A stretch of 64,000 bases of DNA, from contig JANJGN010000040.1 of the NCBI GenBank assembly GCA_026770705.1, positions 3,720,001 through 3,784,000 of the forward strand, read 5' to 3'. The translations under genes were made by a program, and so were the position numbers. Below the pieces are notes generated by a model. It saw nothing but the letters and a program-made list of their open reading frames with translations. It was not told the origin of the DNA and made no database searches. Of the stretch, positions 1-34,710 are shown one piece after another (position 1 is the stretch's first letter; each line of letters opens with the position of its first letter). Origin of the DNA: Isurus oxyrinchus. Taxonomy: Eukaryota.

Positions 1-600
1 CAGCTAACTCTAGTTTTCTGCTTTCTGTCTCCCTCCCTTTTTGAATAAAGGAGTTACATTTGCTATTTTTCAATCTAATTGAAACTTCCCCAAATCTGGG
101 GAATTCTGGGAAAATTAAAACAAATGCATCAACAATCTCACTAGCCACTTCTTCCAATTTCCTCAATACCACTTCCCAGGTAATTTTCCCCGAGTTCCTC
201 TTCCTGATTGACAGGAATTTCCTCCATTTCCTGATTTACAGCTCTTTCCAGGAGATTACTTGTGTCGTCTATCGTGAAGACCGAAGCAAAATAACTGTTC
301 CATTCATCCGCCATCTCCCTACTTTCTATTTTCAATTCTGCAGACGCATTTCCAGAGGACCAAAGCTCACTTTGTTAACTCTATTCTTATTAAATATCTG
401 TAGAAATTCCTCCCATCCGTCTTTATATTACTAGCTAGCTTTCTCTCATACTCTATTTTTTGCCCTTCTCATTAATATGTTTCCTTACTGTTCTTTTTAT
501 TCTTTCCAATCTTCCGATATATAATTATACCCTTTTCCTTTAACTTTGATTCTGTCTCTAATTTTCTCAGTAAATCATGGACGGCGGGCCCTCCCCTGAG
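1..600 (-). mobile_element. Decayed CR1 LINE ORF2 fragment
   Basis: Minus-strand translation EMADEWNSYFASVFT resembles the CR1 ORF2 linker before the RT domain; the frame is disrupted. Confidence 0.7.
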
Positions 601-679
601 AACATACACATTCCAATCAGAGCGAAAAATTCCATGAATTCTGAGATATCCCTTTAAATATCTGCCACTGCCTATCCCT

Positions 680-770
680 TCGCCATGATCTCATTGAATG
701 ACGGAGCAGGCTCGAGTGACTGAGGGGCCTACTACTACTCCTGCCCCTGGTTCGTATGGTCCTAGCTATG
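680..770 (+). mobile_element. CR1 3' tail fragment
   Basis: GCCATGATCTCATTGAATGACGGAGCAGGCTCGAG...CCTACT..CTCCTG matches the CR1 3' UTR seen near 29640, 35180 and 49385. Confidence 0.6.
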
Positions 771-1065
771 TTAGTACCAGAATTAACCAAAGTAATTCCA
801 CTCTCACATACAGCAGTGAAGATAAACAGATGCAGTATATGTTTCAAAGATTCCCAAATGTTGACAATGACTTTCACATCCCTATTCAATACCAGAAACT
901 GACAGATACAGACTGAATTCTACACTCTGATTGCGGATCAGATGTTGGCATGTCCGTTATTCTCAAACACAGACCGGGTTCTGGGAGAGAATGCGAATTG
1001 CACATTCGGAGAGCAGCACAGACTGAAATATATACAATCAATGCCACACTGATTTACAGCGCCAG

Positions 1066-1154
1066 AAACTGAGAAACTCATGAGTGAATCTCATTTCCAG
1101 TTCCATAAACTGAAAAACTCATGAGCGAATTTCATTTCAAGTTCTATAAACTGA
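1066..1154. repeat. 41-bp tandem duplication
   Basis: AAACTGAGAAACTCATGAGTGAATCTCATTTCCAGTTCCAT repeated at 1066 and 1107, with the start of a third copy at 1148. Confidence 0.85.
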
Positions 1155-1256
1155 CAAGAACAGGATACAGCAGACACACACTGTACCTCAGCTTCAAGAA
1201 CAGAATGCACCCACTGTACTCTATCCCCCTACCTCACACAGTATCCGAGTGAGTAA

Positions 1257-1306
1257 CAAAAACAGAATTACCTGGAAAAACTCAGCAGGTCCGGCAGCAT
1301 CAGCGG
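1257..1306 (-). mobile_element. Truncated Penelope-type short element with 14-bp target-site duplication
   Basis: CAAAAACAGAATTACCTGGAAAAACTCAGCAGGTCCGGCAGCATCAGCGG (nearly identical to 39942-39990) is flanked by ATCCGAGTGAGTAA at 1243-1256 and 1307-1320. Confidence 0.8.
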
Positions 1307-1507
1307 ATCCGAGTGAGTAAGTCGCACACATTAGCATAACTTCAGAGTACCAGAAGGAACCCTGCATTCCCGGACGGTCCCTGCAGCGACAGCCAGGCAA
1401 CGTTTCCCAATATATCTTTACACACGGAGAAATTTTGGCTGGAGAGAAGCTTATAAAATGTTCACCTGGTTGCAGTAAATGGGCTAATGGTGGAGAAGTC
1501 GAAATTT

Positions 1508-1637
1508 GATTGGATATTTATAGACACCAATCGGAATAATATAAAAGAATAGGCTGTTATAATTTGTAAAAATGTCCAATCAAAATCACGGTTCTCCAAT
1601 CCCTCATTAGCATAGATCTGGGAGACTGTCTATTTAA
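1508..1637 (+). promoter_or_regulatory. H2B promoter (CCAAT boxes, variant octamer, TATA)
   Basis: ATTGG/CCAAT near 1509, 1527, 1576 and 1596; ATTAGCAT at 1606-1613 (canonical H2B octamer ATTTGCAT); TATTTAA at 1631. Confidence 0.7.
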
Positions 1638-1682
1638 TCGGCGCTCGGAAGGGGTTTGGTTTATTTGTGTCTGAAAGTGACG

Positions 1683-2057
1683 ATGGTTGATGAGAAGAAA
1701 CCAGCTTCCAAGAAGGGAGGCAAGAAAGCCTTAAAGAAACCGATAGCAAAGGGCGGCAAGAAGCGGCGAAAGTCCAGGAAGGAGAGTTATGCCATCTACA
1801 TCTACAAAGTGATGAAGCAGGTTCACCCCGACACCGGCATCTCCTCCAAGGCCATGAGCATCATGAACTCGTTCGTGAGCGATATTTTCGAGCGCATCGC
1901 GGGTGAGGCTTCCCGCCTGGCCCATTACAACAAGCGCAGCACCATCAGCTCCCGGAAGATCCAGACCGCCGTGCGCCTGCTGCTGCCCGGGGAACTGACC
2001 AAGCACGCCGGGTCTAAAGGGACAAAGGCGGTGACCAAGTACACCAGCTCCAAGTAA
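1683..2057 (+). CDS. H2B: Histone H2B, open ORF with atypical substitutions (possibly a young pseudogene)
   Basis: [10 protein letters not shown]...[32 protein letters not shown]...[10 protein letters not shown]; changes versus canonical E93K, A107T, V111G, E113K. Confidence 0.9.
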
Positions 2058-2096
2058 ATTCCCAGAACTGACTGAAACACACATTCACAACACAAC

Positions 2097-2139
2097 GTCT
2101 CTTTTAAGAGCCACCCACAGTCTCTTTGAAAAAGCTATA
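2097..2139 (+). promoter_or_regulatory. Histone 3' stem-loop (one stem mismatch) and HDE
   Basis: GTCTCTTTTAAGAGCC then ACCCA (canonical GGCTCTTTTAAGAGCC); purine-rich GAAAAAGCT downstream. Confidence 0.85.
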
Positions 2140-2976
2140 ACATCTCAATTTTTATTTTGTCATAATTTAAATTTGAACATTTCGAACTATGTTATTTTCA
2201 TGCTATTTCCCTCATATTCGGGCTAATGTAGATTTATCACTCGCTCAATTCTAAGGTCCTGATAATAATGCCCCATAAATGAATGTCTGCCCGCTCACCC
2301 TCTGCGCTTTGTTCTCAGACACGTTCATATCCGGCCCCTTTCCCTGGTTTTGGAGAGAGAGAGAATAGAACGCAAATGCGTCAGTTTCCAGCTCTGGTCA
2401 AGTTTGGTCTCAATAATCGATCCGTTCATTTCCTATCAGCTCCGGTTGTGTCGGAACCTACAGTCACAACGCTGGCAAATTTACACCAGACATGTTCGCT
2501 TTTGACTCTCACGAATACCTACAATATAGCGTCCATTTGTAGAACGATATCAATGACACTTTGCCGGCCGTTTACAGGGTGGAAATTAACCCCGAATAGA
2601 TCCCATATTGTAAAAGCGAATCTGGAACTTGGGATAAAATGTGAAATAGTCCCATCAGGGACGGGTAATTTTAAAACTTTGTCGTCAGACCGAGTTCACT
2701 TTCTACATAAGAATTTCTACATGAAACGTATTTCTTGTTTTATAAATCTATCGGCCGCCTCTTCGATGTCGAAAAGCGTAAATTTCGAGTCGTTATTTTC
2801 GGGTTGTTTTCAGGTTCAGATAAATTCAGACTGAAAATCAGAAACAGACAAATAGAGATGAATTGTAAAATAGAGAAAGGGAGAGTGAAATTAAGTAAAT
2901 CTAACATTCCTATACTAAATACTGAATTACATATTTCCAATTAACACTATGTTCTGTCTGGTTTTTTTTTACAAAT

Positions 2977-3165
2977 TTGGCGGGCTTTGAAAATTTGAAA
3001 AAAAAATCGGTTGGAATTTGGCGCCGTCATTTTCCGCCCTCACTCAGTGGAGTCTCCGGATTGGTGAGTTCAGTAGATATCTGATTGGTGATATGAACAT
3101 TGAGACGCAGCACAACGTGACCAATCAGCAATGCCCGCAGCACCATTCATCCCGAAGATATAAGA
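2977..3165 (+). promoter_or_regulatory. H2A promoter (E2F/CDE-CHR-like, CCAAT boxes, TATA)
   Basis: TTTGGCGGGCTTTGAAAATTTGAAA at 2977, TTTGGCGCCG at 3017, ATTGG/CCAAT near 3060, 3084 and 3121, GATATAAGA near 3157. Confidence 0.7.
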
Positions 3166-3178
3166 GAAGCGAATGTGA

Positions 3179-3616
<438 letters not shown>

Positions 3617-3646
3617 AGCGGCCATTCTTTAATCTAATAACCCAAA

Positions 3647-3686
3647 GGCTCTTTTCAGAGCCACTCACAGAGTCTGAAAAGGGCTG
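3647..3686 (+). promoter_or_regulatory. Histone 3' stem-loop and HDE
   Basis: Perfect GGCTCTTTTCAGAGCC at 3647-3662; GAAAAGGGCTG downstream. Confidence 0.92.
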
Positions 3687-3712
3687 CTCACTGTCTGACC
3701 TCATTTCATTCT

Positions 3713-3803
3713 GGCTCTGAAGAAGCGTCATGCCGATTTGAAGCGATAATTCCCCCTCTCCACAGGTGCTGCCAGACCTGCTGAAATTTTCCAGCATTTT
3801 CAT
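3713..3803 (+). mobile_element. Penelope-type short element with degenerate hammerhead motif
   Basis: CTGAAGA-AGCGTCATGCCGATTT-GAAG-CGAT followed by the family arm CTCCACAGGTGCTGCCAGACCTGCTGAAATTTTCCAGCATTTTC. Confidence 0.65.
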
Positions 3804-4196
3804 TAAACATACTAGGTTTTATACTGGTGTGTTTTGCAGCGAAGCTGAGAAAAGTCATTTTCGCTCTACATGCCTTTCAACCCGGTTTCAATTCGCATTC
3901 ATTAACCGAGGCAGATAGAAAACTTCTACTGATGGGCTAAATCACCGTGAATAACGACAGTTCCGGGTCTGACAAACATGCACGGTATGGGTTTCCTTAA
4001 TGTCACGGTTCAATAGATGTTGAAGAGAAAATGGGGTGAGTCGTTCTTCCACTATGTTGGAGTAGGACATTGGAGTCTGGAGAGTTAATACACCGCTCCA
4101 CTCCCCACAAAGACATCAACAACCTTAATAAATTAACTAATGACAGAAGAAGAATGAAATCATGCTAAAGCTGCTTTTCAAGCAGTTACAGCTTCA

Positions 4197-4616
<420 letters not shown>

Positions 4617-4730: not shown

Positions 4731-5802
4731 TGACAGACAGAAAAGATGCTCCGCCTCCTGCCTGTTCGAACTGCTGTTTTCGAATTCTGGGCACCATTAG
4801 TGAACAGGGTGCTCGAAACAAATCTTACTCAATGGAACATATTGTTTATCTATAGTTTGAAACCCGGATCTTTTAAATCTAGATCTGTCAGCAATATCCC
4901 GCCTAATTCCAGTCGCTTCTACAACCAGACTAACAGTCTGCATTCATTTCTAGGACAGCTTCTATTCCATTAACACACAACTCCCCTCCCAGAAGCATTG
5001 AGACTTTTACTGACACCTCTTCCAGCTGAATTGGAGAATATAATGTGTTTGGGATTGAGTTGTGACGCGGGGTTTGGCCGAGGATGAGTTTGAGAGAGTT
5101 GTAAATTACAAAGTAGTCAAGAGGTATGAGGAGCAGTCAGAGAAGGAGAACTCAGGTCACAAACACGCCAGACAGCCTCTAAACCAATTAGTCTGCAGGT
5201 GTAACAAGTGAATGGGACTAAGAACAAGATAAGATCGGATCACGGGCCTGCAATTTAGTTTATTCAGCAGGGATTCGAAAAGTTTTGCAAAGATTGAACC
5301 GGTCAGTGAAAGTGTCTGTCTAAGAACTGGAAATGAATACCGGCTGAAATTTAAAACGTTGATATTGGAATTTGTGACAGCAAATCAATTATTTTAAGGG
5401 AGGTGTTGGTCTAATTATTTCAGACAGAACTTCATCATCCCTTCCAGGATAAGTTGCATTTTTTTTATTGTTCAGTACTTTGTGGATATCTGCATGGAGC
5501 CGTTGTAGTTGGTCACTATCTTTGTCTCTTTCACGGCCCGTTCCCCAGGCAGCAACAGACCTTTTCCTGTCTCGATGTGTCCACAGAAACAGCAGGAGCC
5601 AATTTATTGTGGATTGGTGCCGTCTGCTGGCTTAACGTGAGACGTGCAAAGAGGTAACTTCTTTGGGGACATTTTAAATGAGTGTGAAACAACATAAATA
5701 TGGTGAGAATTATTCCAAACAGTTTATCATTCAGACACAACATGCCAAAGATATAGTGTGTTTCGCGGTACTATAAATGCTGACTGTAATTTAAAACAAT
5801 GT

Positions 5803-5874
5803 TCGATGGTGGTATAGTGGTGAGCATAGCTGCCTTCCAAGCAGTTGACCCGGGTTCGATTCCCGGCCATCGCA
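5803..5874 (+). tRNA. trnG-TCC: tRNA-Gly(TCC), position 1 mismatch
   Basis: TCGATGGTGGTATAGTGGTGAGCATAGCTGCCTTCCAAGCAGTTGACCCGGGTTCGATTCCCGGCCATCGCA; A and B boxes intact, TTTT at 5886. Confidence 0.9.
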
Positions 5875-5919
5875 GTAGTGACTTATTTTCAGCCTAATCC
5901 GTGGTCAGACCATAATTCT

Positions 5920-6152
5920 CAACACCGGTTAAAATATGCGTTGGGGTTCTTACAGTTCCACGCTCTGTAAGATTGGTCTTATCGGCAACCTTGTAAACAG
6001 GGCCCGATCCATTTGCTCACCATGCAAGCTTAATGCTGAAATCGGGCTCATCAAAGCCATCCTGCAGGTTAATGGCTACCCTGATCAGATCATTTCGCGC
6101 TGTGTATCACACAAGCTCATGACCGGGCCTGAGACCGTCACCTTCCACCCTG
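5920..6152 (+). mobile_element. Penelope-like element RT C-terminal/linker fragment
   Basis: RWGSYSSTLCKIGLIGNLVNRARSICSPCKLNAEIGLIKAILQVNGYPDQII matches the PLE pattern K..LV.RA..ICS...L..E...I...L..NGYP. Confidence 0.8.
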
Positions 6153-6360
6153 AAGTATATTCTCCATCAGTATAAATTGTTGTCTTCCCCTTATATTGGT
6201 TTTCTTGGGAGTGTCCTGTTGAGTGCAGAAGGAAAAGCTTTGACATGTCTCTTTTTTCAGCCACACTCAAATAAATTGACGCTAATGTTCAATTTGTAAA
6301 CCTGTTTCAGCTCTGCCAGTTTGGCTCAGTCAATCTGCGGTCCATTTTCTTTTTGATCTT

Positions 6361-6535
6361 GGAAAAACTCAGCAGGTCTGACAGCATCTGCGGAGGGGAA
6401 TACAGTTGACGTTTCGAGTCCGTATGGCTCTTCATCAGAACACTCTGTATTCCCCTCCGCAGATGCTGTCAGACCTGCTGAGTTTATCCAGGTGTTTTTA
6501 TTTTTGTCTAGATTTCCAGCATCCGCAGTAACTTT
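6361..6535 (-). mobile_element. Fold-back Penelope-type element enclosing a hammerhead core
   Basis: 45-bp inverted arms 6361-6405 and 6445-6489 (one mismatch), then the family tail GATTTCCAGCATCCGCAGTA. Confidence 0.85.
6405..6441 (-). ncRNA. Minimal type I hammerhead ribozyme motif
   Basis: Minus strand GTT-CTGATGA-A-GAGCC-ATACG-GACTC-GAAA-C-GTC-AAC: CUGAUGA and GAAA cores, GUC triplet, palindromic ACGU in place of helix III. Confidence 0.7.
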
Positions 6536-6717
6536 TTTTCTTTTTGATGTTTGTTGGTTGGTGAAATAAGCTGCTCTCTGATTGGCTACAAAAGCCGCCC
6601 AATGAGATTCCGAACACTGACCTTTCAGAAGTGGCCGACTGCATTCGCCAGAAGATTGGGGAAGGGTGAGTGCGGGAGGAATTCTTTATTCGTGGTGTAA
6701 GTGTGTGTAAGTTTGTA

Positions 6718-6860
6718 GAAAGACCGGCGGGAAAGCCCAGGGCAAAGACAAAGCCAAAGCCAAGTCTCGCTCCCCCCGGGCCAGAATGCAGCTCCCCGCT
6801 GGCCGTGTTCGCAGGCTCCTGAGAAAGAGCAGCTATGCTGAGCGTGTGGCTGCTGGAGCG
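6718..6860 (+). pseudogene. H2A: H2A 5' fragment pseudogene
   Basis: AAGACCGGCGGGAAAGCC...GCCAAGTCTCGCTCC...GGCCGTGTTCGCAGGCTCCTGAGAAAGAGCAGCTATGCTGAGCGTGTG aligns to 3239-3368; no ATG, truncated; CCAAT boxes at 6581-6603. Confidence 0.85.
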
Positions 6861-7179
6861 CTCCGCTCTTCCGATTGTAACATTCCCGGCCGCTTTCAGG
6901 GGACAGGGTCAGAAACGGGCCGTTTCTCTCTGTCCCGGTGAAGCCTGTGTGAAGGAGTCGGTCGGTAACCTATGTTACTGCGTTTCCAGTGAGCTGAGAT
7001 TGGCTCTGTTTTAAATCGCTGCTTTGTTCCCGCCAGTTGCAGATAAAAAATTGACAAATTTAATCTGTTCCTAAAATACCGCCAGGATTCTGTGATGCAA
7101 AATGCAGTATTACAGCTCCTAAAGTGTGAGATTAAAATTGTTGCCTGGAAATTAAGGCGTTCATAACTTTTTCCCCCCA

Positions 7180-12276: not shown

Positions 12277-14345
12277 CAACTCGTGGACAGTCTCAGAATG
12301 TGTGGGTTCTTCAGTGCAGTCAGGACCATTTGCAGCCCAAGGACCTACCCCACTGAGAACTCAGAATGGAGCGGCGCTTATCAAGGACAGAGATACACTC
12401 CGGCTCATTGGAAGGAGCCCTTGTCTGATTTCCTCAACTGAGAATCTGTCCTCGACATGACTGCCCTTGACCACATTCCACAGCATGCTACACACCACCA
12501 GCTCAGTACAATCCCAGCCCGACATGAGGTTGAAAAGGCCATCCGACAGCTAAGAACCATCAAGGCTGCCGGCGCAGGAGGAATCCCTGCGAAAACACTA
12601 AAACAGGGTGGAGAACTACATGTTTTCATCTCCCTCATCAGGAAGGAGAGCATACCAGAGTATCTCTGAGATGCCTAATTGTCACTATCTTCAAAAAAGG
12701 AGACCAGACTGACTGCAGTAACTATCGAGGGCTATCTCTGCTGTCCACCACAGGGAAGGTCGTTGCAAGATCCCTCCGCAATTACCTTCTCTCCATGGCT
12801 GCAGAGCTCCTACCCCAGACACAATGCGGATTCTGTCCATCAAGCAGAACATTGAAAATGATCTTCACAGGAAGACAAACCTAAGAAAATGCAGAGAGCA
12901 GCAGCAACCTCTGTTCATGGTCTTCTTTGACCCCACAAAGGCCTTCGACTCAATCAACTGGGAGCGACTGTGGAGCATCCTCCTCAAATTGTTCTGCCCA
13001 CAGAAACGAGTCACCACCCTCCGCCTGCTGCAGGATGACATGCAAACCCTGACCCTGACCAAGGGATCTGCTGCAGACCCACACTAGTGCAAACTGGGGT
13101 CAAGCAAGTCTGTGTCATCGCACCAAATCCCTTTTCCAACTCCATCTCTGCAACACCCCACCCCATCTCCATGAAGCTTCCCGTCGGGGTGGAGCTACTC
13201 TACAGGACGAGCAGGAAACACTCAACTTACGTCACCTCCATTCCGGAAGCGAGATCACCCCAACTTCTGTCATCGAACTGCAGCGCGCTGACGACAGTTG
13301 TGTCTGCGCAAACTCAGAGACAGAGCTCCAAACTATCATTGACACATTCACGGAGCCGTGTGATAGGAAGGGCTTTAGGCTAAACATGTGGAAGGCAAAG
13401 GTTCTCTACTAGACAGCCCCCGCTGCGCACACTGCCACCTGCACCCTCCCCACCCCCCTCACCGGCCACCGCCCCCCCCTCCACCCTCCCCATCCCCTCC
13501 ACCCTCCCCTCCCTCCCGGGACTATCAAGATCCACAGTGAACCATTGGGCCTTGGGAGCCTCTGATCAGCGAGGGCAGATCTCAACAATGAAACTAAACA
13601 TCGCCTCCGGTTTGCCAGCGAAGCCTTCGGCCGACTGTTTAAAAGAGTGTTTGATGGCAAGGATCTCAAACCCGGCCCCCAGCTCCTGGTCTACAGCGCT
13701 GCAGTGCTACCTGCCACCTTAATGCATCAGGAAACTGGACAACATACAGCAGACACCTTAAATCCCTGGAGAAATATCACCAGCGGTGCCTCCACAAAAT
13801 CCTGCAAATTCAATGGCAGGAGAGGTGCTCCAATATCAGTGTCTCCTCTCAAATCAACATCCCCAGTATCGAGGCACTGGTTATGGTTAATCAGCCACGT
13901 TGGCCGGGCCACATCATCCACATTCCTGACACAAAACTCCCAAAACAAGCTCTCTACTCCGAGCTTCGTCACGGCAAGCGGTTACCAGGAGGGCAGAGGA
14001 AACGTTTCAGTGACGTCCTCAAAACCTCCCTGATAAAATGCAACATCCCCACCGATTTGTGGGAATCTCTCGCTTGAGACGCCCAAACTGGAGAAGAAGC
14101 ATCCGCGAAGGTGTCAACCATTTGGAACGGCTCCGACAGGCCCAGGTGGAGGCCAAGCGCAAACAGCGGAAGGAGCGGAGCAAAATCCGAGCAACCCACC
14201 CACCCGCCTCCTCAAACACTACCTGCCCCAACCTGTGGCAGACTGTGCAGAGCCAGCATTGGACTTTATAGGCTCCGCAGAACCCACAGCCCAGAGTGGA
14301 AGGTTGTCATTCTCAGTCAGGAGGCACTGTCTAAGACGGGAGGCT
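12277..14345 (+). mobile_element. RTE-clade LINE, 5'-truncated and frameshifted
   Basis: HEVEKAIRQL..KAAG..GIPA, KCREQQQPLFMVFFDPTKAFD, GVKQVCVIAP, QPRWPGHIIHIPDTKLPKQALYSEL.HGKR.PGGQRKRF, C-terminal CxxC...H motif. Confidence 0.9.
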
Positions 14346-14912: not shown

Positions 14913-15444
14913 ATAGTTCACAGAATAGGGCAGAAGCGGCACGAGGTGTGTTATTTGGAGAGGTGTTACAGAGAATGAGAGATAAACACTCACAGTTGAA
15001 AGAGATGGAGTTTTTAGCAGGGCAGTGAGAGAGTGTTGCAGGAATTTCGATACGAGCTTCGAAATCAGAAAACGTTACCTTTGTTTTAAAGAGCCGAGAG
15101 ACTGAGGGTTCCAAATGCAGAAATCACCAAATTGAGTGAACAGGCTACTTTTTTTCAAGCTGAAATCAATCCGAATAAGTCATTTATACTTTACATCGAC
15201 AGCAATCTGCCTGTTAATTCATGTGTAATTGATGTTGATTTTGGTTTGTTTGTTAAAACAAAGTAAGAAGTAAAAACATAAGAAGCAAAATCTTGTCTTT
15301 TGGTTTTCTCATTGAGGTCATTGGGTAAATTTGATTCTATTGGTCTCCACGGAGACCTGAACAAAAGGCACGCTGGTTCCTGAGCTTTATAAATAGAAGC
15401 ATCGAGTACAAAAGCAAAACAGCAATGGAGAATCGTTATAAACA

Positions 15445-15640
15445 CTGAAATCAAAAGAGAAAATGTTAGAAAAACTCAGCAGGTCAGGCAGCATCTGTGG
15501 AGAGAGAAACAGAGTTATCGTTTGGAGTCTAATATGACTCTTCGCTGGATACTCTCTTTCTCTCTCCACAGATGCTGCCAGACTGGCTGAGTTTTTCCAT
15601 TCCCTGTTTTCATTTCAGGTTTCTAGCATCCGAGCTACTT
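15445..15640 (-). mobile_element. Fold-back Penelope-type element with decayed hammerhead
   Basis: Inverted arms AAAAACTCAGCAGGTCAGGCAGCATCTGTGGAGAGAGAAA / TTTCTCTCTCCACAGATGCTGCCAGACTGGCTGAGTTTTT around CGTTTGGAGTCTAATATGACTCTTCG. Confidence 0.8.
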
Positions 15641-23204: not shown

Positions 23205-24375
23205 TTGAGTCTCGCTGCTTTAACCCTCTCTCTCTCCTGGAGTATTGCTTGTTTAACCTCTCCCCCTGGAAGGGTCTGTGTTTTAACCTTTCTGTCCGAA
23301 GGTTTGCCGTTTTAACACCTCTGTCCCGAATCCTTGCTGTTTTAACCTCTCTGTCCCGAATACTTGCTGTTGTAACCTCTCCCGAATCCTCACTGTTTTA
23401 ACTTCTTCCTCCCGAAATCTGTCTGTGTTAAGCTGTCTGTCCCAAAGCCTCGCTGTTTTAACTTCTCCCTCCCAAATTCTGTCTGTGTTAACCTCTCTCT
23501 CCCAAACACTCGCTGTTTTAACCTCTCTCACCCAAAGTCTCGCTGTTTTAACCTCTCTCACGAAGTCTCGCTGTTTTGACCTCTCTCTCCCGAAGTCTCG
23601 CTGTTTGAACATCTCTCCTGAAGTCTCACTGTTTTAACCTCTCTCTCCTGAAGTCTCACTGTTTTAAACTCTCTTCAAAACTCTTGCTGTTTTAACCTCT
23701 CTCTCTCGAAGTTTCGCTGTTTTAACCTCTCTGCCGAAGTCTCGCTGTTTTAACCTCTCTCTCCCGAAGTCTCTGTTTTAACCTTTTTCCCGAAATCTCG
23801 CTGTTTTAACCTCTCTCCTGAAGTCCCGCAGCTTTAACCTCTCTCTCCTGAAGTCTCGCTGTTTTAACCTCTCTCTCCTGAAGTCTCGCTGTTTCAACAT
23901 CTCTCCCGAAGTCTCGCTGATTTAGCCTCTCTCCTGAAGTCTCTGTTTTAACCTCTCTCCTGAAGTCTCGCCGTTTTAACGACTCTCTCCCAAAGTCTCG
24001 CTGTTTTAACTTCTCTCTCCCAAAGTCTCGTTGTTTTAACCTCTCTCCTGAAGTCTCGCTGTTTTAACCTCTCTCCCGAAGTCTCACTGTTTTAACCTCT
24101 CTCCCGAAGTCTCGCTGTTTTAACCTCTCTCTCCCGAAGTCTCGCTGTTTTAACCTCTCTCTCCCGAAGTCTCGCTGTTTTAACCTCTCTCTCCCGAAGT
24201 CTCGCTGTTTTAACCTCTCTCCCGAAGTCTCTATTTTAACCTCTCTCTCTATCGTGATGTCTCTGTTTTAACCTCACTCTCCCAAAGTCTCAATGCTTTA
24301 ACCTCTCTGTTCCCAAACTCTCACTGTTTTAGCCTCTTCCTCCCGAAGTCTCTCTATTTTAACCTCTCTCTCCCA
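23205..24375. repeat. ~28-30 bp minisatellite, roughly 35-40 units
   Basis: Consensus CTCTCTCCCGAAGTCTCGCTGTTTTAAC; most homogeneous at about 24050-24230. Confidence 0.95.
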
Positions 24376-25850: not shown

Positions 25851-25859
25851 GGTCACTTC

Positions 25860-26585
25860 TATTATATGAGTGTGTGGAATTAACTCTCTCTCTGTCCATC
25901 TCTGTTACTCTGTGAATGTGGAATTAATTAATCCACAATATCAGTCAAACTGCACAATTAACTCTCTATCCGTCAGTCTCTGTTGCTATGTTTCAGGGCA
26001 GAATTATGATAACTTTCTATCTATCATTAAATATTAGTCTGTATGATTGTGGAATTAATTCAGTATCTGTCAGCTTCTATTGCTGTACATCAATGTGGAA
26101 TTAACTCTCCCTCATCTCCGTTACTGGGTGTGAGTGCACAATTAACTCTCATCTGTCAGTATTTGCTTCTGAGTTTCAGTGTGGAATTACCTCTCTGTCC
26201 ATCTTCGATAGTGTGAGAGGGCAGAATTAATTCTGTATCTGGTATTCTATGTTACTGTATGTAAGCGGGGCATTAATTCTCTGTTTGTCTCTGTTATTGT
26301 ATGTGAGAGTGGAATTAACTGTCAGTCTTGGTTGTTGTTTATGAGTGCAGCATTTCTTTCTCTCGATGAGTGTAATTGAATACGGAATTAACTCTCTCTT
26401 TGACAGTCTCTGTTACTTTATGTGAGTGTGAATGAATTCTCTATCCTTTAGACTCAAGTACTTTACTTTAGTGTGGCATTAACACATTGTGAATCTCTGT
26501 TACTGTCTGTGTGTGGAATTCACTCTCTGCCCATCTACAATAATGTGATTTTCATTAACTCTCCATCCGTCAGTCTCTGTTACTC
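25860..26585 (-). repeat. ~42-46 bp satellite array, segment 1
   Basis: Repeats of GTGGAATTAACTCTCTATCTGTCAGTCTCTGTTACTGTATGTGA. Confidence 0.85.
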
Positions 26586-26589
26586 CATG

Positions 26590-29714: not shown

Positions 29715-31320
29715 TTAATTTGTCAAGAGTGGGATTGACCCTCTGTCAGTTAACCTCTTTTGCTGTATTTCAGTGTGAAATTAACTCAGCCTTATCTGAA
29801 TGTAAGTGTGGAATTGATTCTCTGCCCATCATTTTCTGAATGTGAGTGTCTAATTTACATCTCTGTCAGTCTCTGTTACGGTTGAGAGTGGAACTAACTC
29901 TCGAGCAGCTTATGATACTGTATATGCGTGTGGAATTCAGTCTTTGTCAGCGTCTAGCTGTATGAGAATATGGAATTAACTCATGTCAGTCTCTGTTACT
30001 GTATGTGAGTGTGGAATTATCTCTATCACTCAGTCTTGGTTGCTGTAAGTGTGGAATTCTCTTTTCCAGTCTTTGTTCTGACATCTTAGAGTGGAGTTAA
30101 GACCTCACAATTTCCATTAATATTTCAATGAGGAATTAACTTACAACAACAGAGACTGAGTGAAAGTAAGCGAGTTAGTTCCACACTCTCATATTAGTCT
30201 GCCTGTGTGACTGTATGTGAGTGAGGAATAAACAAACAATTTGTCAGCCTCTATTACTGAGTGTGTGGAATTAACTCTCTATCAGTCAGTCTCTATTACT
30301 GTGTGAATTCACAGAATCAAAGAATTGTTATGCTATAGAAGGAGGCCATTTGACCTATCATATCTCCACCGGCTGTCTGAGCATTTTAACTTAGTGCCAA
30401 TCTCCTGCCTTTTCCCCATAATACTGCCCATTGTTTCTATTCAAATAATCATCCAATGCCCTCTTGAATGACTCAGTTGAACCTGCCTCCACCACACTTT
30501 CAGGCAGTGCATTCCAAAACCTAACAACTCGCTGTTTCTTTTGCAAAACACTTTAAAACCATGCCCTCTGGTTCTCAATCCGTTTACAAGCAGGAACAGA
30601 ACCTCTATATCTACTCTGTCCACACACCTCATGACTTTGAAAGCTTCTATCAAGTCTCCTCTTAGCCTTCTCCACTCCAAGGAAAAGAGTCCAAACTTCT
30701 CCAATCTTTCCTCATAACTGAAGTGTCTCATCCCTGGAAACATTCTCATAAACCTCTTCTGCACTTTCTCCAATGCATTCAGATCCGTCCTATATTGTTA
30801 ACCTTAACTTTCAATCTCTGTCATGTGTCCAAGTGCGGATTTAGCTTTCTATCTAATCATGTTGGTTATGGTACATGAGTGTGAAATTAACTAGTTGTAT
30901 GACACTCTGTTACTGTAGGTAAATACAGAATTAACTCCGTCAGTTTCTGTCACTGTACCAGAATGTGGAATTGATTCTTTATCTGTCAGTCTCGGTTACT
31001 GTAGCAGGCCATGGAAATAACTCCTTTTCAGGCTCTGCTACTTCAAGAAAGTTAATTCAACACTCATCATCTGTCAATCCATGTTACTGCATATGAGTGT
31101 GATATTAATTCTCAGTCGCTGTTATGCGAGTGAAGAATTGCATCTCTATCGTTTCGTCTCTGGTACTGTCTGTGGGTGTGGAATTTCATACCTTACATGT
31201 CAACCTCTGTTGCTGTACATGAATGCAGAATTAATTCTGTACCTGTCAGCCTCAATTATACTGAGTGTGTGGAATTAACTCTCTATCAGTCAGTCTCTAT
31301 TACTGTACAGGCAGCAGTTA
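29715..31320 (-). repeat. ~42-46 bp satellite array, segment 2 (interrupted by CR1 at 30312-30795)
   Basis: Same GTGGAATTAACTC...GTCAGTCTCTGTTACTG unit. Confidence 0.85.
30312..30795 (-). mobile_element. CR1 3' fragment
   Basis: EKVQKRFMRMFPGMRHFSYEERLEKFGLFSLEWRRLRGDLIE plus 3' tail. Confidence 0.88.
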
Positions 31321-31577
31321 TTGACCTTATGTCAGAAATGCTTGGGCGCTACTGTTCTTAAAAAGTGCTCGCGGTTAAACCATCGTCTTCTCCTCTCTCT
31401 ACTCTCCAGTTCTTAGTCAGCCAACAAGAACATACCTTCAAAGTAAGTGAGGAACGGCTTCCATATCCAACATTCTTTCTGCTTCAAAAGTGTTCTTCAT
31501 TTGTCAGTTTGAGTTTCTGACCTTGCTTCTGAGTAACACCTGCAACAATTCACTGGCAGCATCATGTGGATAGTGGC

Positions 31578-31670
31578 AATCTGAAATAAAGAGAGAAAAT
31601 GCTGGAAATACACAGCACATCAGACAGCAAATGTGCAGAAAGAAACGTTAACATTTCAGGTCACTGACAA
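31578..31670 (-). mobile_element. Old Penelope-type short element
   Basis: AATCTGAAATAAAGAGAGAAAATGCTGGAAATACACAGCACATCAGACAGCA...GTTAACATTTCAGGTC, a diverged copy of the family arm. Confidence 0.6.
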
Positions 31671-31714
31671 TCAACCTGCAATAAAACACTTAATAACATC
31701 TGCCCATGGTGGCT

Positions 31715-32889: not shown

Positions 32890-33500
32890 AACTGTTCCCT
32901 GCTGCAGAGAGATGTCCCCTGTTTGTAATAATGAGTCATGTTGTGCAACTGTGTATCCTGTTGTGTAACTGTGTTCTTTGTTGACGTGACTGTGTTCTCT
33001 GATGTGCAACAATGCTGTCTTTCCTGTATCTGTGTTCTCTGTTGTGCAACTGTGCTCTCCGTTATTTAACTCTTCCATCTGTTGTGCAACTGTTCCCTCC
33101 GTTGTGCAAATGTGCCTGCTGTTGTTTAACTGTGCCCTCTATTGTGTAACTTTGCCTTCTGTTCTGTAAGTGTGCCCTCTGTTGTTTAACTGTGCTCTCT
33201 GTTGTGTAATTGTGTTATCTGTTGTGGAACTGCGCCCTCCATTGTGTAAGTGTGCCCTCTGTTTTTTAACTGTGCCCTGTGTTGTATGACTGTGCCCGTT
33301 TCACTTCCCTGTCATACGAACGTGTTCCCACCTGTAAAAATGTTCTCTGTTTTCTCAATATGTTCCCTGTTCTGTAAAGATTTTCTCTGTTCCTCAGTGA
33401 GGATGTTTTCTGTTGGTAAAATATTTTCTTTCTGGGGCCTTTATTTTCCATGTCATGTTAATATGTTCTATGTTGTGTTCAGATGTTTTCTTTTCTTGTG
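32890..33500. repeat. ~21-bp minisatellite
   Basis: Tandem CTGTTGTGTAACTGTGCCCT-like units, clearest at 33040-33290. Confidence 0.85.
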
Positions 33501-33870: not shown

Positions 33871-34512
33871 CCATTATTCTTATTATTCAGCTCTTCGGGA
33901 AAGAGAATGATTTGCTTCATCTCCCTCTTTCTCGCCCCTCTCTCTATTCCTCTCTGAACAGAGTCAGTGTCACATTCCATGACAGTGCTGCAGCACCCAG
34001 CTACTGCAGACCAAGGATTTGGATCATTTTACGATAACTTCATCCCAACCAGAAACAATCCACTACTCCATGAATGGGACTGAGTGACAGAGAAGGGAAT
34101 TCTGCACAGGTCAAATTACGACTTCCCATTCTCAGTTTCCACTGATGTTTTTATTTGTTCACGGGCTGTGGGAGTCGCTGACAAGGGCAGAATCTGTTGC
34201 CTCGCCCTAACTGCCCTTCAGACTAGACTCTGCTTGAGTTGCTGTTTTTAGCTTTCTGTTTTATCGTAATGACAATTAATTGAAACAAATCATTTGGTCT
34301 ATTTTGTGTTTGCTACCTCCTCTCTCTTCGGATTATTATAAATGCCTTTTTCTTCATTCAGGAAAATATTTGATTGCATCAAAATCAAAGTAGTGATTCG
34401 ATGACATAAGGAGAAGTGCAGCCAGCTCGTTTTCACAGAGTAAGTGCAGTATCAGTCACAGTGAGCAGGGACATCAGTTCCACAAGAACCAGCAACACAG
34501 AAAGAGATAAGA

Positions 34513-34710
34513 TCAAAATAGTGCAGATGCTGGAAATCTGAAAGAAAAGCAGAAAATGATTGAAAAAACTCAGGAGGTCTAATAGCATTTGCGGAGAGAA
34601 AGACAGAGTTAAATTTTAGAGTCATACAGGCATGAAACATAAACTCTGTCTTTCTCTCCACAGATGCTGTTAGACCTCCTGAGTTTTTCCAGCATTATCT
34701 GTTTTTTGTT
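34513..34710. mobile_element. Fold-back Penelope-type element with hammerhead remnants
   Basis: Arms AAAAACTCAGGAGGTCTAATAGCATTTGCGGAGAGAAAGACAGAGTT / AACTCTGTCTTTCTCTCCACAGATGCTGTTAGACCTCCTGAGTTTTT; loop contains GAGTCATACAGGCATGAAACAT. Confidence 0.82.

Follow-up and report, generated by a model that had tools for sequence, protein, structure and literature searches.

A hammerhead ribozyme motif placed at the apex of a long and nearly perfect hairpin raises the question of whether the two form a working unit or were brought together by the way the DNA was inserted. The question is posed by positions 6361-6535 of the 64-kb stretch of DNA analyzed here (the window), which contains histone genes, tRNA genes and many repeats, the latter resembling cartilaginous-fish repeats. 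A first-pass annotation had put forward a dispersed functional module of hairpin and ribozyme. The evidence below points elsewhere: 6361-6535 is probably a very short, inert head-to-head Penelope-like element (PLE) insertion, made of two cDNAs that were joined at the helix I repeat.

Inspection of the minus strand reveals a motif that begins with GUU (6441-6439) and CUGAUGA (6438-6432), continues through an extra A into helix II (GAGCC-AUACG-GACUC, 6430-6416) and GAAA (6415-6412), and ends on its 3' side with C-GUC (6411-6408) and AAC (6407-6405). GUU and AAC form helix I, and the palindrome ACGU stands in place of helix III. Core features shared with the consensus in the compared part of PMC4209133 are CUGANGA, the extra nucleotide, G10.1-C11.1, GAAA, a palindromic 15.2-16.2 and NUH. 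The earlier claim that all core residues are present on this strand is borne out, both by reading 6441-6405 letter by letter and by a match to our own minimal-hammerhead descriptor. Likewise, the cleavage position proposed at that stage, after the GUC near 6408, agrees with the predicted cut at 6408^6407, and the identification as a PLE-type minimal type I hammerhead, a class thought to need dimerisation, is in line with the compared portions of PMC4209133 and PMC6765202. A hammerhead search, which had been suggested as a check, gave a divided answer: the descriptor finds only one site in the 64-kb window, the motif at 6405-6441, whereas an Rfam search of the window has no hammerhead among 20 matches at E ≤ 1. 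In shuffled windows, the descriptor yields a mean of 0.03 matches, with at least one match in 6 of 200. The bare pattern CUGANGA..GAAA is not enriched in the window (5 found vs 8.4 expected).

The arms on either side of the motif, 6361-6405 and 6445-6489, differ at one of 45 positions, and one further pair (6360/6490) can be added. The hairpin has a calculated stability of -99.2 kcal/mol (z -17.7; 0 of 200 shuffles as stable) and forms on either strand at about -99 kcal/mol each. The 45-bp arms with one mismatch stand as the first-pass annotation described them, except that base 6405 had been counted twice, in the arm and in helix I; as corrected, helix I is extended by 6360-6404 paired with 6446-6490 across a 4-nt bulge.

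Two features had gone unnoticed in that annotation, a target-site duplication (TSD) at 6345-6360 and 6536-6551 and a one-sided tail at 6491-6535 (Table 1). The TSD is exact over 13 bp and has one mismatch over 16 bp, and 5 of 400 random sites score as high. The tail is homologous to the ends of family segments 15551R, 34509L, 39898, 59305 and 31560, and where arm 1 stops, contigs of the same family run on into the tail (loose ends before 6360). The 175 bp of 6361-6535 are one TSD-flanked insertion. Because arm 1 has the ribozyme and arm 2 has the tail, neither was copied locally from the other, and since each holds sequence absent from its partner while the TSD lies outside both, the two were delivered in one event. 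Both arms also have in common a rare letter at 6396 and its mirror 6454, absent in about 95-98% and 82-97% of family depth, respectively. Likeness of the arms within the locus, together with this letter in both, argues for one source RNA or locus per event. In this copy, one reading frame is open across ribozyme and arm. No empty site was found within the window or among the 15 joints listed of 61 in public contigs. Contig pieces over the outer edges of the insertion reach 6-30 letters inside it, against the 31 needed to count as bridging, and hint that two other organisms have the insertion at this site too.

Table 1. Coordinates of the insertion, of related copies in the window and of neighboring genes and gene fragments.
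Feature	Position	Strand	Remarks
TSD, left copy, 16 bp, 13/16 A/T	6345-6360	+	repeats 6536-6551
Arm 1, from the copy with the hammerhead: repeat sequence on the ribozyme's 3' side	6361-6404	minus	ends before the tail
Minimal type I hammerhead motif	6405-6441	minus	descriptor match; fits consensus line in the compared part of the PMC4209133 supplement
Arm 2: inverted, 5'-truncated copy	6442-6490	+	starts at helix I 3' strand
One-sided 3' extension (tail), 42-45 nt	6491-6535	+	arm 2 only
TSD, right copy	6536-6551	+	repeats 6345-6360
Second fold-back	15441-15639		join near helix I; core C3-N7 replaced by unrelated letters; arms differ 11/73
Third fold-back	34512-34710		join at GAGTC inverted repeat of helix II; arms differ 11/70
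Single-arm stub without ribozyme, 53 bp	1255-1307	minus	exact 14-bp TSD
Single-arm copy, decayed hammerhead	3713-3804	+
Single-arm copy with tail	31557-31672	minus	truncated within helix II
Single-arm copy with tail, variant core CUGUCGA	39912-40044	minus	interrupts histone H3 reading frame
Single-arm copy with tail, decayed core	59308-59443	minus
Two very decayed family segments	51049-51115, 51885-51970		profile HMM only, E about 1e-5
PLE-type RT frame fragment, decayed, post-RT region with NGYP motif	5924-6202	+	outside TSD
tRNA-Gly(TCC) gene	5802-5875
tRNA-Phe(GAA) gene	41844-41916
tRNA-Trp(CCA) gene	52459-52532

A profile HMM search of the window counted 13 hits, 11 of which are its own training segments; the two weak remaining hits (E 0.089 and 0.47) were dropped, and the reversed control gave 0 hits. 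The window holds 10 family loci, three of them fold-backs, and one of the 10 passes the hammerhead descriptor. The layout that had been said to recur at 15445 and 34513 does so in part: both fold-backs are real (Table 1), but the ribozyme core is in neither, and the one at 34512-34710 has no CUGANGA on either strand. Each of the three fold-backs has one arm that extends to the family 3' end and one that ends earlier. The arms differ by 1/45, 4/45 and 4/46 within each fold-back and by 6-12 of 44-46 between these three loci; over the whole overlap, drift in the two older fold-backs amounts to 15-16%. Among eight family copies tested for TSDs, two have clear ones (13 bp exact and 14 bp exact), and the other six have an 8-bp (one copy) or 4-7-bp (five copies) direct repeat, not clearly above the random range. 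One single-arm copy, 39912-40044, breaks a histone H3 frame (MARTKQ...QLATK, 39829-39910) and has the core CUGUCGA (A6 to U).

Public contigs from four of 24 listed runs were aligned to 6240-6660 at 80% likeness, giving 15209, 28024, 16674 and 1660 contigs per run. The four runs represent at most three samples (two runs are from one sample) and two organisms, and one of them is guessed to be an RNA run. In the three non-RNA runs, summed depth over 6405-6434 is about 0.5-3.7 million, compared with about 130-3300 on the flanks, which places depth over the ribozyme (depth not being copy number) at hundreds to thousands of times flank depth. The repeat in 6361-6535 belongs to a very high-copy family. 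Loose contig ends mark single-arm copies with a sense ribozyme before 6442 and with the tail before 6360, and family contigs extend upstream of the ribozyme, behind 6441, into a longer element. The flanks themselves (6240-6345 and 6550-6660) contain many variant letters, with pieces at depth up to 519 beside pieces below 30; this hints that the locus lies within a multi-copy segment, to the extent that depth, which is not copy number, can indicate it. The run guessed to be RNA has family depth over the repeat and none over most flank bins and is not informative on expression; similarly, no RNA run is listed for 5900-7000, which says nothing on expression. Pattern scans found no family copies in viral contigs or prokaryote genomes, and two metagenome loci considered as family members (L001 and L002) have only a short pattern in common and were set aside as chance.

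The family provides a background against which the letters of the motif can be read. Helix II of 6405-6441 is 5 bp long, its fourth pair being a C.A mismatch (position 6427), where 95-98% of family depth has the letter that gives a perfectly paired helix. At 6408, the triplet is GUU in 63-71% of family depth (non-RNA runs). The CpG of the helix III palindrome (6410/6411) is mutated in 7-10% of depth and an arm CpG (6392) in 11-13% (three non-RNA runs), and loss of the helix III CpG is, judging from these proportions, ordinary decay after insertion. The A6-to-U change at 6435 makes up 27-38% of family depth in the three non-RNA runs and 56% in the run guessed to be RNA. Because the CUGUCGA change recurs at this depth, a subfamily with an altered core position may exist.

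Joins between arms are varied in the same contigs. Immediately beyond the join (6443), depth falls to 0.06-0.11% of its value at 6427 in the non-RNA runs and to 0.38% in the run guessed to be RNA; the former range is rough, since contigs fitting both arms may go to one and other helix I joins are perhaps clipped. Among the 15 joints listed of 61, 14 link arm 1 (6381-6404) to arm 2 (6442-6471) at varied positions. No ribozyme letters are reported between the arms in 13 of the listed joints (6 are marked as not known between the arms), and the remaining listed joints are one with partial ribozyme and one deletion within arm 1. These joints have 22-27 letters on the short side at 80% likeness, such that some may be misalignments or library chimeras. 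One contig from the second organism aligns to 6361-6474 without gaps, differing at 7 positions. Because this contig carries a matching join, the join is old or shared, and sharing is equally compatible with retention.

The anatomy of the insertion is best understood by comparison with PLEs. PLE insertions frequently carry, immediately adjoining their 5' end, a 5'-truncated copy in inverted orientation, along with a tail of 30-40 bp at one of the ends (PMC8557442), and rotifer PLE copies have an inverted pLTR, a tail, an 8-10-bp TSD and palindromes at the inverted junction (PMC3846280). At 6361-6535 there is a terminal repeat with a minimal type I hammerhead motif, a head-to-head inverted and 5'-truncated copy (6442-6535 vs 6361-6441, with two further window loci alike), a tail at one end that is slightly longer than the published length, and a TSD at an A/T-rich site. 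By these sequence features, the locus appears as a match to an endonuclease-positive (EN+) PLE insertion in four of five respects. A copy linking the repeat to an RT/GIY-YIG gene was found neither in the window nor by protein searches, and the translated repeat gave no longer protein relative. The PLE origin consequently rests on architecture. In the compared parts of PMC8557442, PMC3846280 and PMC11167929, the likeness to EN+ PLE insertions covers the adjacent head-to-head copy at the 5' end, the tail on one arm, the TSD at an A/T-rich target, the hammerhead inside the repeat and heavy 5' truncation. In contrast to the EN+ PLE units described there, 6361-6535 is only 175 bp long and lacks coding sequence, its arms abut and its ribozyme sits at the apex; relative to published PLEs, the tail is 42-45 nt against 30-40 and the TSD is 13-16 bp against 8-10.

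We infer head-to-head joining of two cDNAs, one for each nick and start site. At a T-rich target, the element endonuclease would nick the two strands with a spacing of about 13-16 bp, and each nick would prime reverse transcription at one of two start sites on the element RNA, namely the end of the tail and a site about 45 nt inside the tail end. One cDNA would copy through the hammerhead and the other would stop just short of it, whereupon their 3' ends would join where the helix I strands give 3-4 nt of microhomology. After a helix I join of this kind, the apex would hold the complete motif and the duplicated arm would lengthen helix I, and a join at some other short inverted repeat, such as helix II in the 34512 copy, would produce a fold-back without a ribozyme. 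That is to say, the ribozyme would lie at the hairpin apex because the helix I strands are an inverted repeat at which the cDNAs joined, and as the clamp would follow from the geometry of this join, selection would not be required. The join in 6361-6535 carries 2 extra bases and is therefore no clean microhomology join. Several properties of the anole PLE are relevant here: its protein nicks and extends both strands at AT-rich sites, reverse transcription starts at two internal sites bounding the tail, and its ribozyme is dispensable for insertion in vitro (PMC11167929). Junction palindromes in rotifers have been accounted for by self-priming on an antisense template (PMC3846280). Two cDNAs are preferred here because self-priming on arm 1 cannot supply the tail. 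By hand count (6430-6535), the tail end lies at +115 to +118 from helix II, and the main reverse transcription start of the anole element lies 111-118 nt into a frame beginning at helix II (PMC11167929); this agreement may be coincidence.

Does the clamp help the ribozyme? With C15.2 directly next to G16.2, the monomer is unable to form helix III. In ViennaRNA folds, UGAUG of the core is base-paired to CGUCA across the cut site with a probability of 0.75-0.90, and in helix II the three closing pairs form with probability 0.93 and the rest in a shifted register. The open hammerhead fold has a probability of 1.8e-4 when clamped and 5.4e-4 without the 5' arm. The double-hammerhead dimer is calculated at -179.7 kcal/mol, compared with -198.4 kcal/mol for two monomers, and is thus 18.7 kcal/mol worse; the arm helix alone accounts for -87.2 kcal/mol. 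In the double-hammerhead model, helix I forms between two molecules (PMC4209133, PMC6765202, PMC6155905, in the portions compared), so the 45-bp arms must be swapped for the dimer to assemble. The clamp is thus predicted not to favor the open ribozyme fold and to hinder the strand swap that a dimer needs, and the clamped RNA is predicted not to cleave, within a nearest-neighbor model that ignores Mg2+, tertiary contacts and proteins. According to PMC4209133, a single minimal motif does not cleave in vitro and dimers have only low activity, and for cleavage the anole PLE ribozyme depends on its protein (PMC11167929). If transcribed, the 45-bp duplex on either strand could serve as a Dicer or ADAR substrate.

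A different origin of the join would give the ribozyme an active part. In this reading, which we regard as unlikely, the join records ribozyme activity: the tail-bearing cDNA would have run off a hammerhead-cut 5' end, and an uncut partner RNA would have served as template for the other cDNA, as would be the case in a double-hammerhead dimer of which one half is cleaved. It would explain why arm 2 starts at 6442, one base past the predicted cut, with the 15441 fold-back agreeing to the base (in two of the three window fold-backs, arm 2 starts no more than a base from the cut), and why the join has 2 extra bases instead of a clean overlap; it would also suit PLE ribozymes, which are thought to act as dimers (PMC4209133; PMC6765202), and the anole PLE protein, a predicted dimer that extends both strands (PMC11167929). 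In both fold-backs, however, the other arm also ends at about the helix I 5' strand, which microhomology predicts and run-off need not, and in the 34512 copy both arms continue past the cut site to a join at helix II. Moreover, in most of the 15 joints listed of 61, the start of arm 2 falls at 6455-6471, at a distance from the cut, and anole ribozyme mutants insert normally, with no read starting or finishing at the cut (PMC11167929). Were run-off nonetheless true, high-copy families would constitute a genome-wide record of PLE ribozymes cutting in vivo, for which no demonstration was found in the compared parts of the PLE literature. It is very unlikely, in turn, that the repeat is not PLE-derived at all (a SINE tail or MITE-like sequence) or that the fold-back arose through later local inverted duplication or gene conversion. 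Such an origin would sit well with the lack of an attached RT/GIY-YIG gene in the window and of any link in protein searches, and later conversion would also make arms more alike within than between loci. Against it, both arms lie within the TSD and each carries sequence missing from its partner; the ends are ragged and asymmetric, unlike terminal inverted repeats; the motif agrees at each position with the PLE minimal-hammerhead consensus in the compared part of PMC4209133; and on the upstream side of the ribozyme, family contigs run on into a longer element.

We give least credence, and very little of it, to the dispersed functional module of the first-pass annotation, kept as a unit and either self-cleaving as a dimer or feeding Dicer or ADAR. 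All core residues are intact in the 6405-6441 copy, the 45-bp duplex is near-perfect on either strand, a matching join is present in the second-organism contig and three of 10 window loci are fold-backs, all of which speak for a module. Yet two of the three fold-backs are without the core and have arms that drifted 15-16%, joins are heterogeneous and the one in 6361-6535 is a tiny share of family depth, the helix II mismatch is absent from the family majority, and folding predicts an inactive state with a high barrier to the dimer. In addition, across 11 window segments none of eight ribozyme pairs changed on both sides and shuffles were not beaten, a weak test on a small, decayed sample. With the core in one of three fold-backs, varied joins and a layout that is a described PLE arrangement, the module is not supported. 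The head-to-head insertion of two cDNAs is what we retain: the structure is real and its origin likely ordinary, one more PLE-type stub in a layout already described for PLEs.

Other short elements resemble parts of this locus. MITEs and hairpin-derived small-RNA loci are, as is 6361-6535, short, non-coding, dispersed fold-backs, and MITEs have terminal inverted repeats at both ends and form uniform families of equal-length copies. MITE identity was rejected given unequal arms, ends and joins that vary among copies, and a long TSD. MicroRNA identity was rejected as well, with Rfam matches at the sister fold-backs of 24-41 bits against gathering cut-offs of 53-90, and Rfam plastid matches are below cut-off. 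Metazoan PLE minimal hammerheads (PMC4209133; Lunse et al. via PMC6765202) have the same core, GAAA, a 3-bp helix I and no loop III, and the CGUC ending of the motif is that of the fugu, cichlid, lamprey and Xenopus rows of the PMC4209133 supplement; the portion of that supplement compared has no cartilaginous fish row. The motif at 6405-6441 differs from them in its 5-bp helix II with a C.A mismatch and in a helix I continued by a 45-bp duplex. PMC4209133 also describes motif pairs on opposite strands, 100-700 bp apart. Animal non-LTR retrozymes, reported from one chondrichthyan genome, are likewise non-coding and PLE-related with a type I hammerhead (bioRxiv 10.64898/2026.07.22.740005, as far as compared). 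They are head-to-tail tandem units with a ribozyme in each, whereas 6361-6535 is a single head-to-head unit with one ribozyme; retrozyme identity, which takes at least two consecutive head-to-tail hammerhead units, was rejected for this single unit with one descriptor match in the window. Further comparison came from the compared portions of PMC6765202, PMC6155905 and PMC8969392, and the role of the PLE hammerhead is called unclear in PMC8557442. A literature search that stopped short of subscription journals and repeat databases turned up neither a report of a clamped hammerhead unit nor one of this family in sharks.

As most likely read, the locus is of little importance, being one short stub among very many retroelement repeat copies. 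Such stubs nevertheless call for caution: they can pass for microRNA precursors or for hairpin and ribozyme units built by design, and the ribozyme escapes Rfam. The lead of real value is where the join lies, and the abundant family permits a computational comparison of arm starts with helix I microhomology.

The surroundings of the insertion include a decayed coding fragment of PLE type (5924-6202), which lies about 160 bp to its left, between the tRNA-Gly gene and the TSD. This fragment has 81 relatives at E ≤ 0.001. Ten of these were scanned, and seven have RVT_1 (four above Pfam's cut-off), with two of the seven also having a sub-cut-off GIY-YIG match. The fragment itself has no Pfam match and no hit in a word-indexed search. 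It is the sole PLE-type coding fragment in the window, and there is no long repeat copy there.

On the right side, the insertion is just left of a promoter-like stretch, in which CCAAT-type boxes at about 6580-6605 precede a truncated H2A pseudogene (6729-6860). The pseudogene has no start codon and is 66% identical to residues 5-48 of the H2A at 3224-3616. The histone cluster (1683-4616 and 39201-39400) comprises H2B, H2A and degenerate H4 frames with histone 3' stem-loops. Minisatellite arrays occupy 23228-24373, 25854-26586, 29719-31328 and 32919-33328 with units of about 28-30, 42-46 and 20 bp, and broken LINE-type reverse transcriptase frames, judged by eye, extend over 12534-14077.
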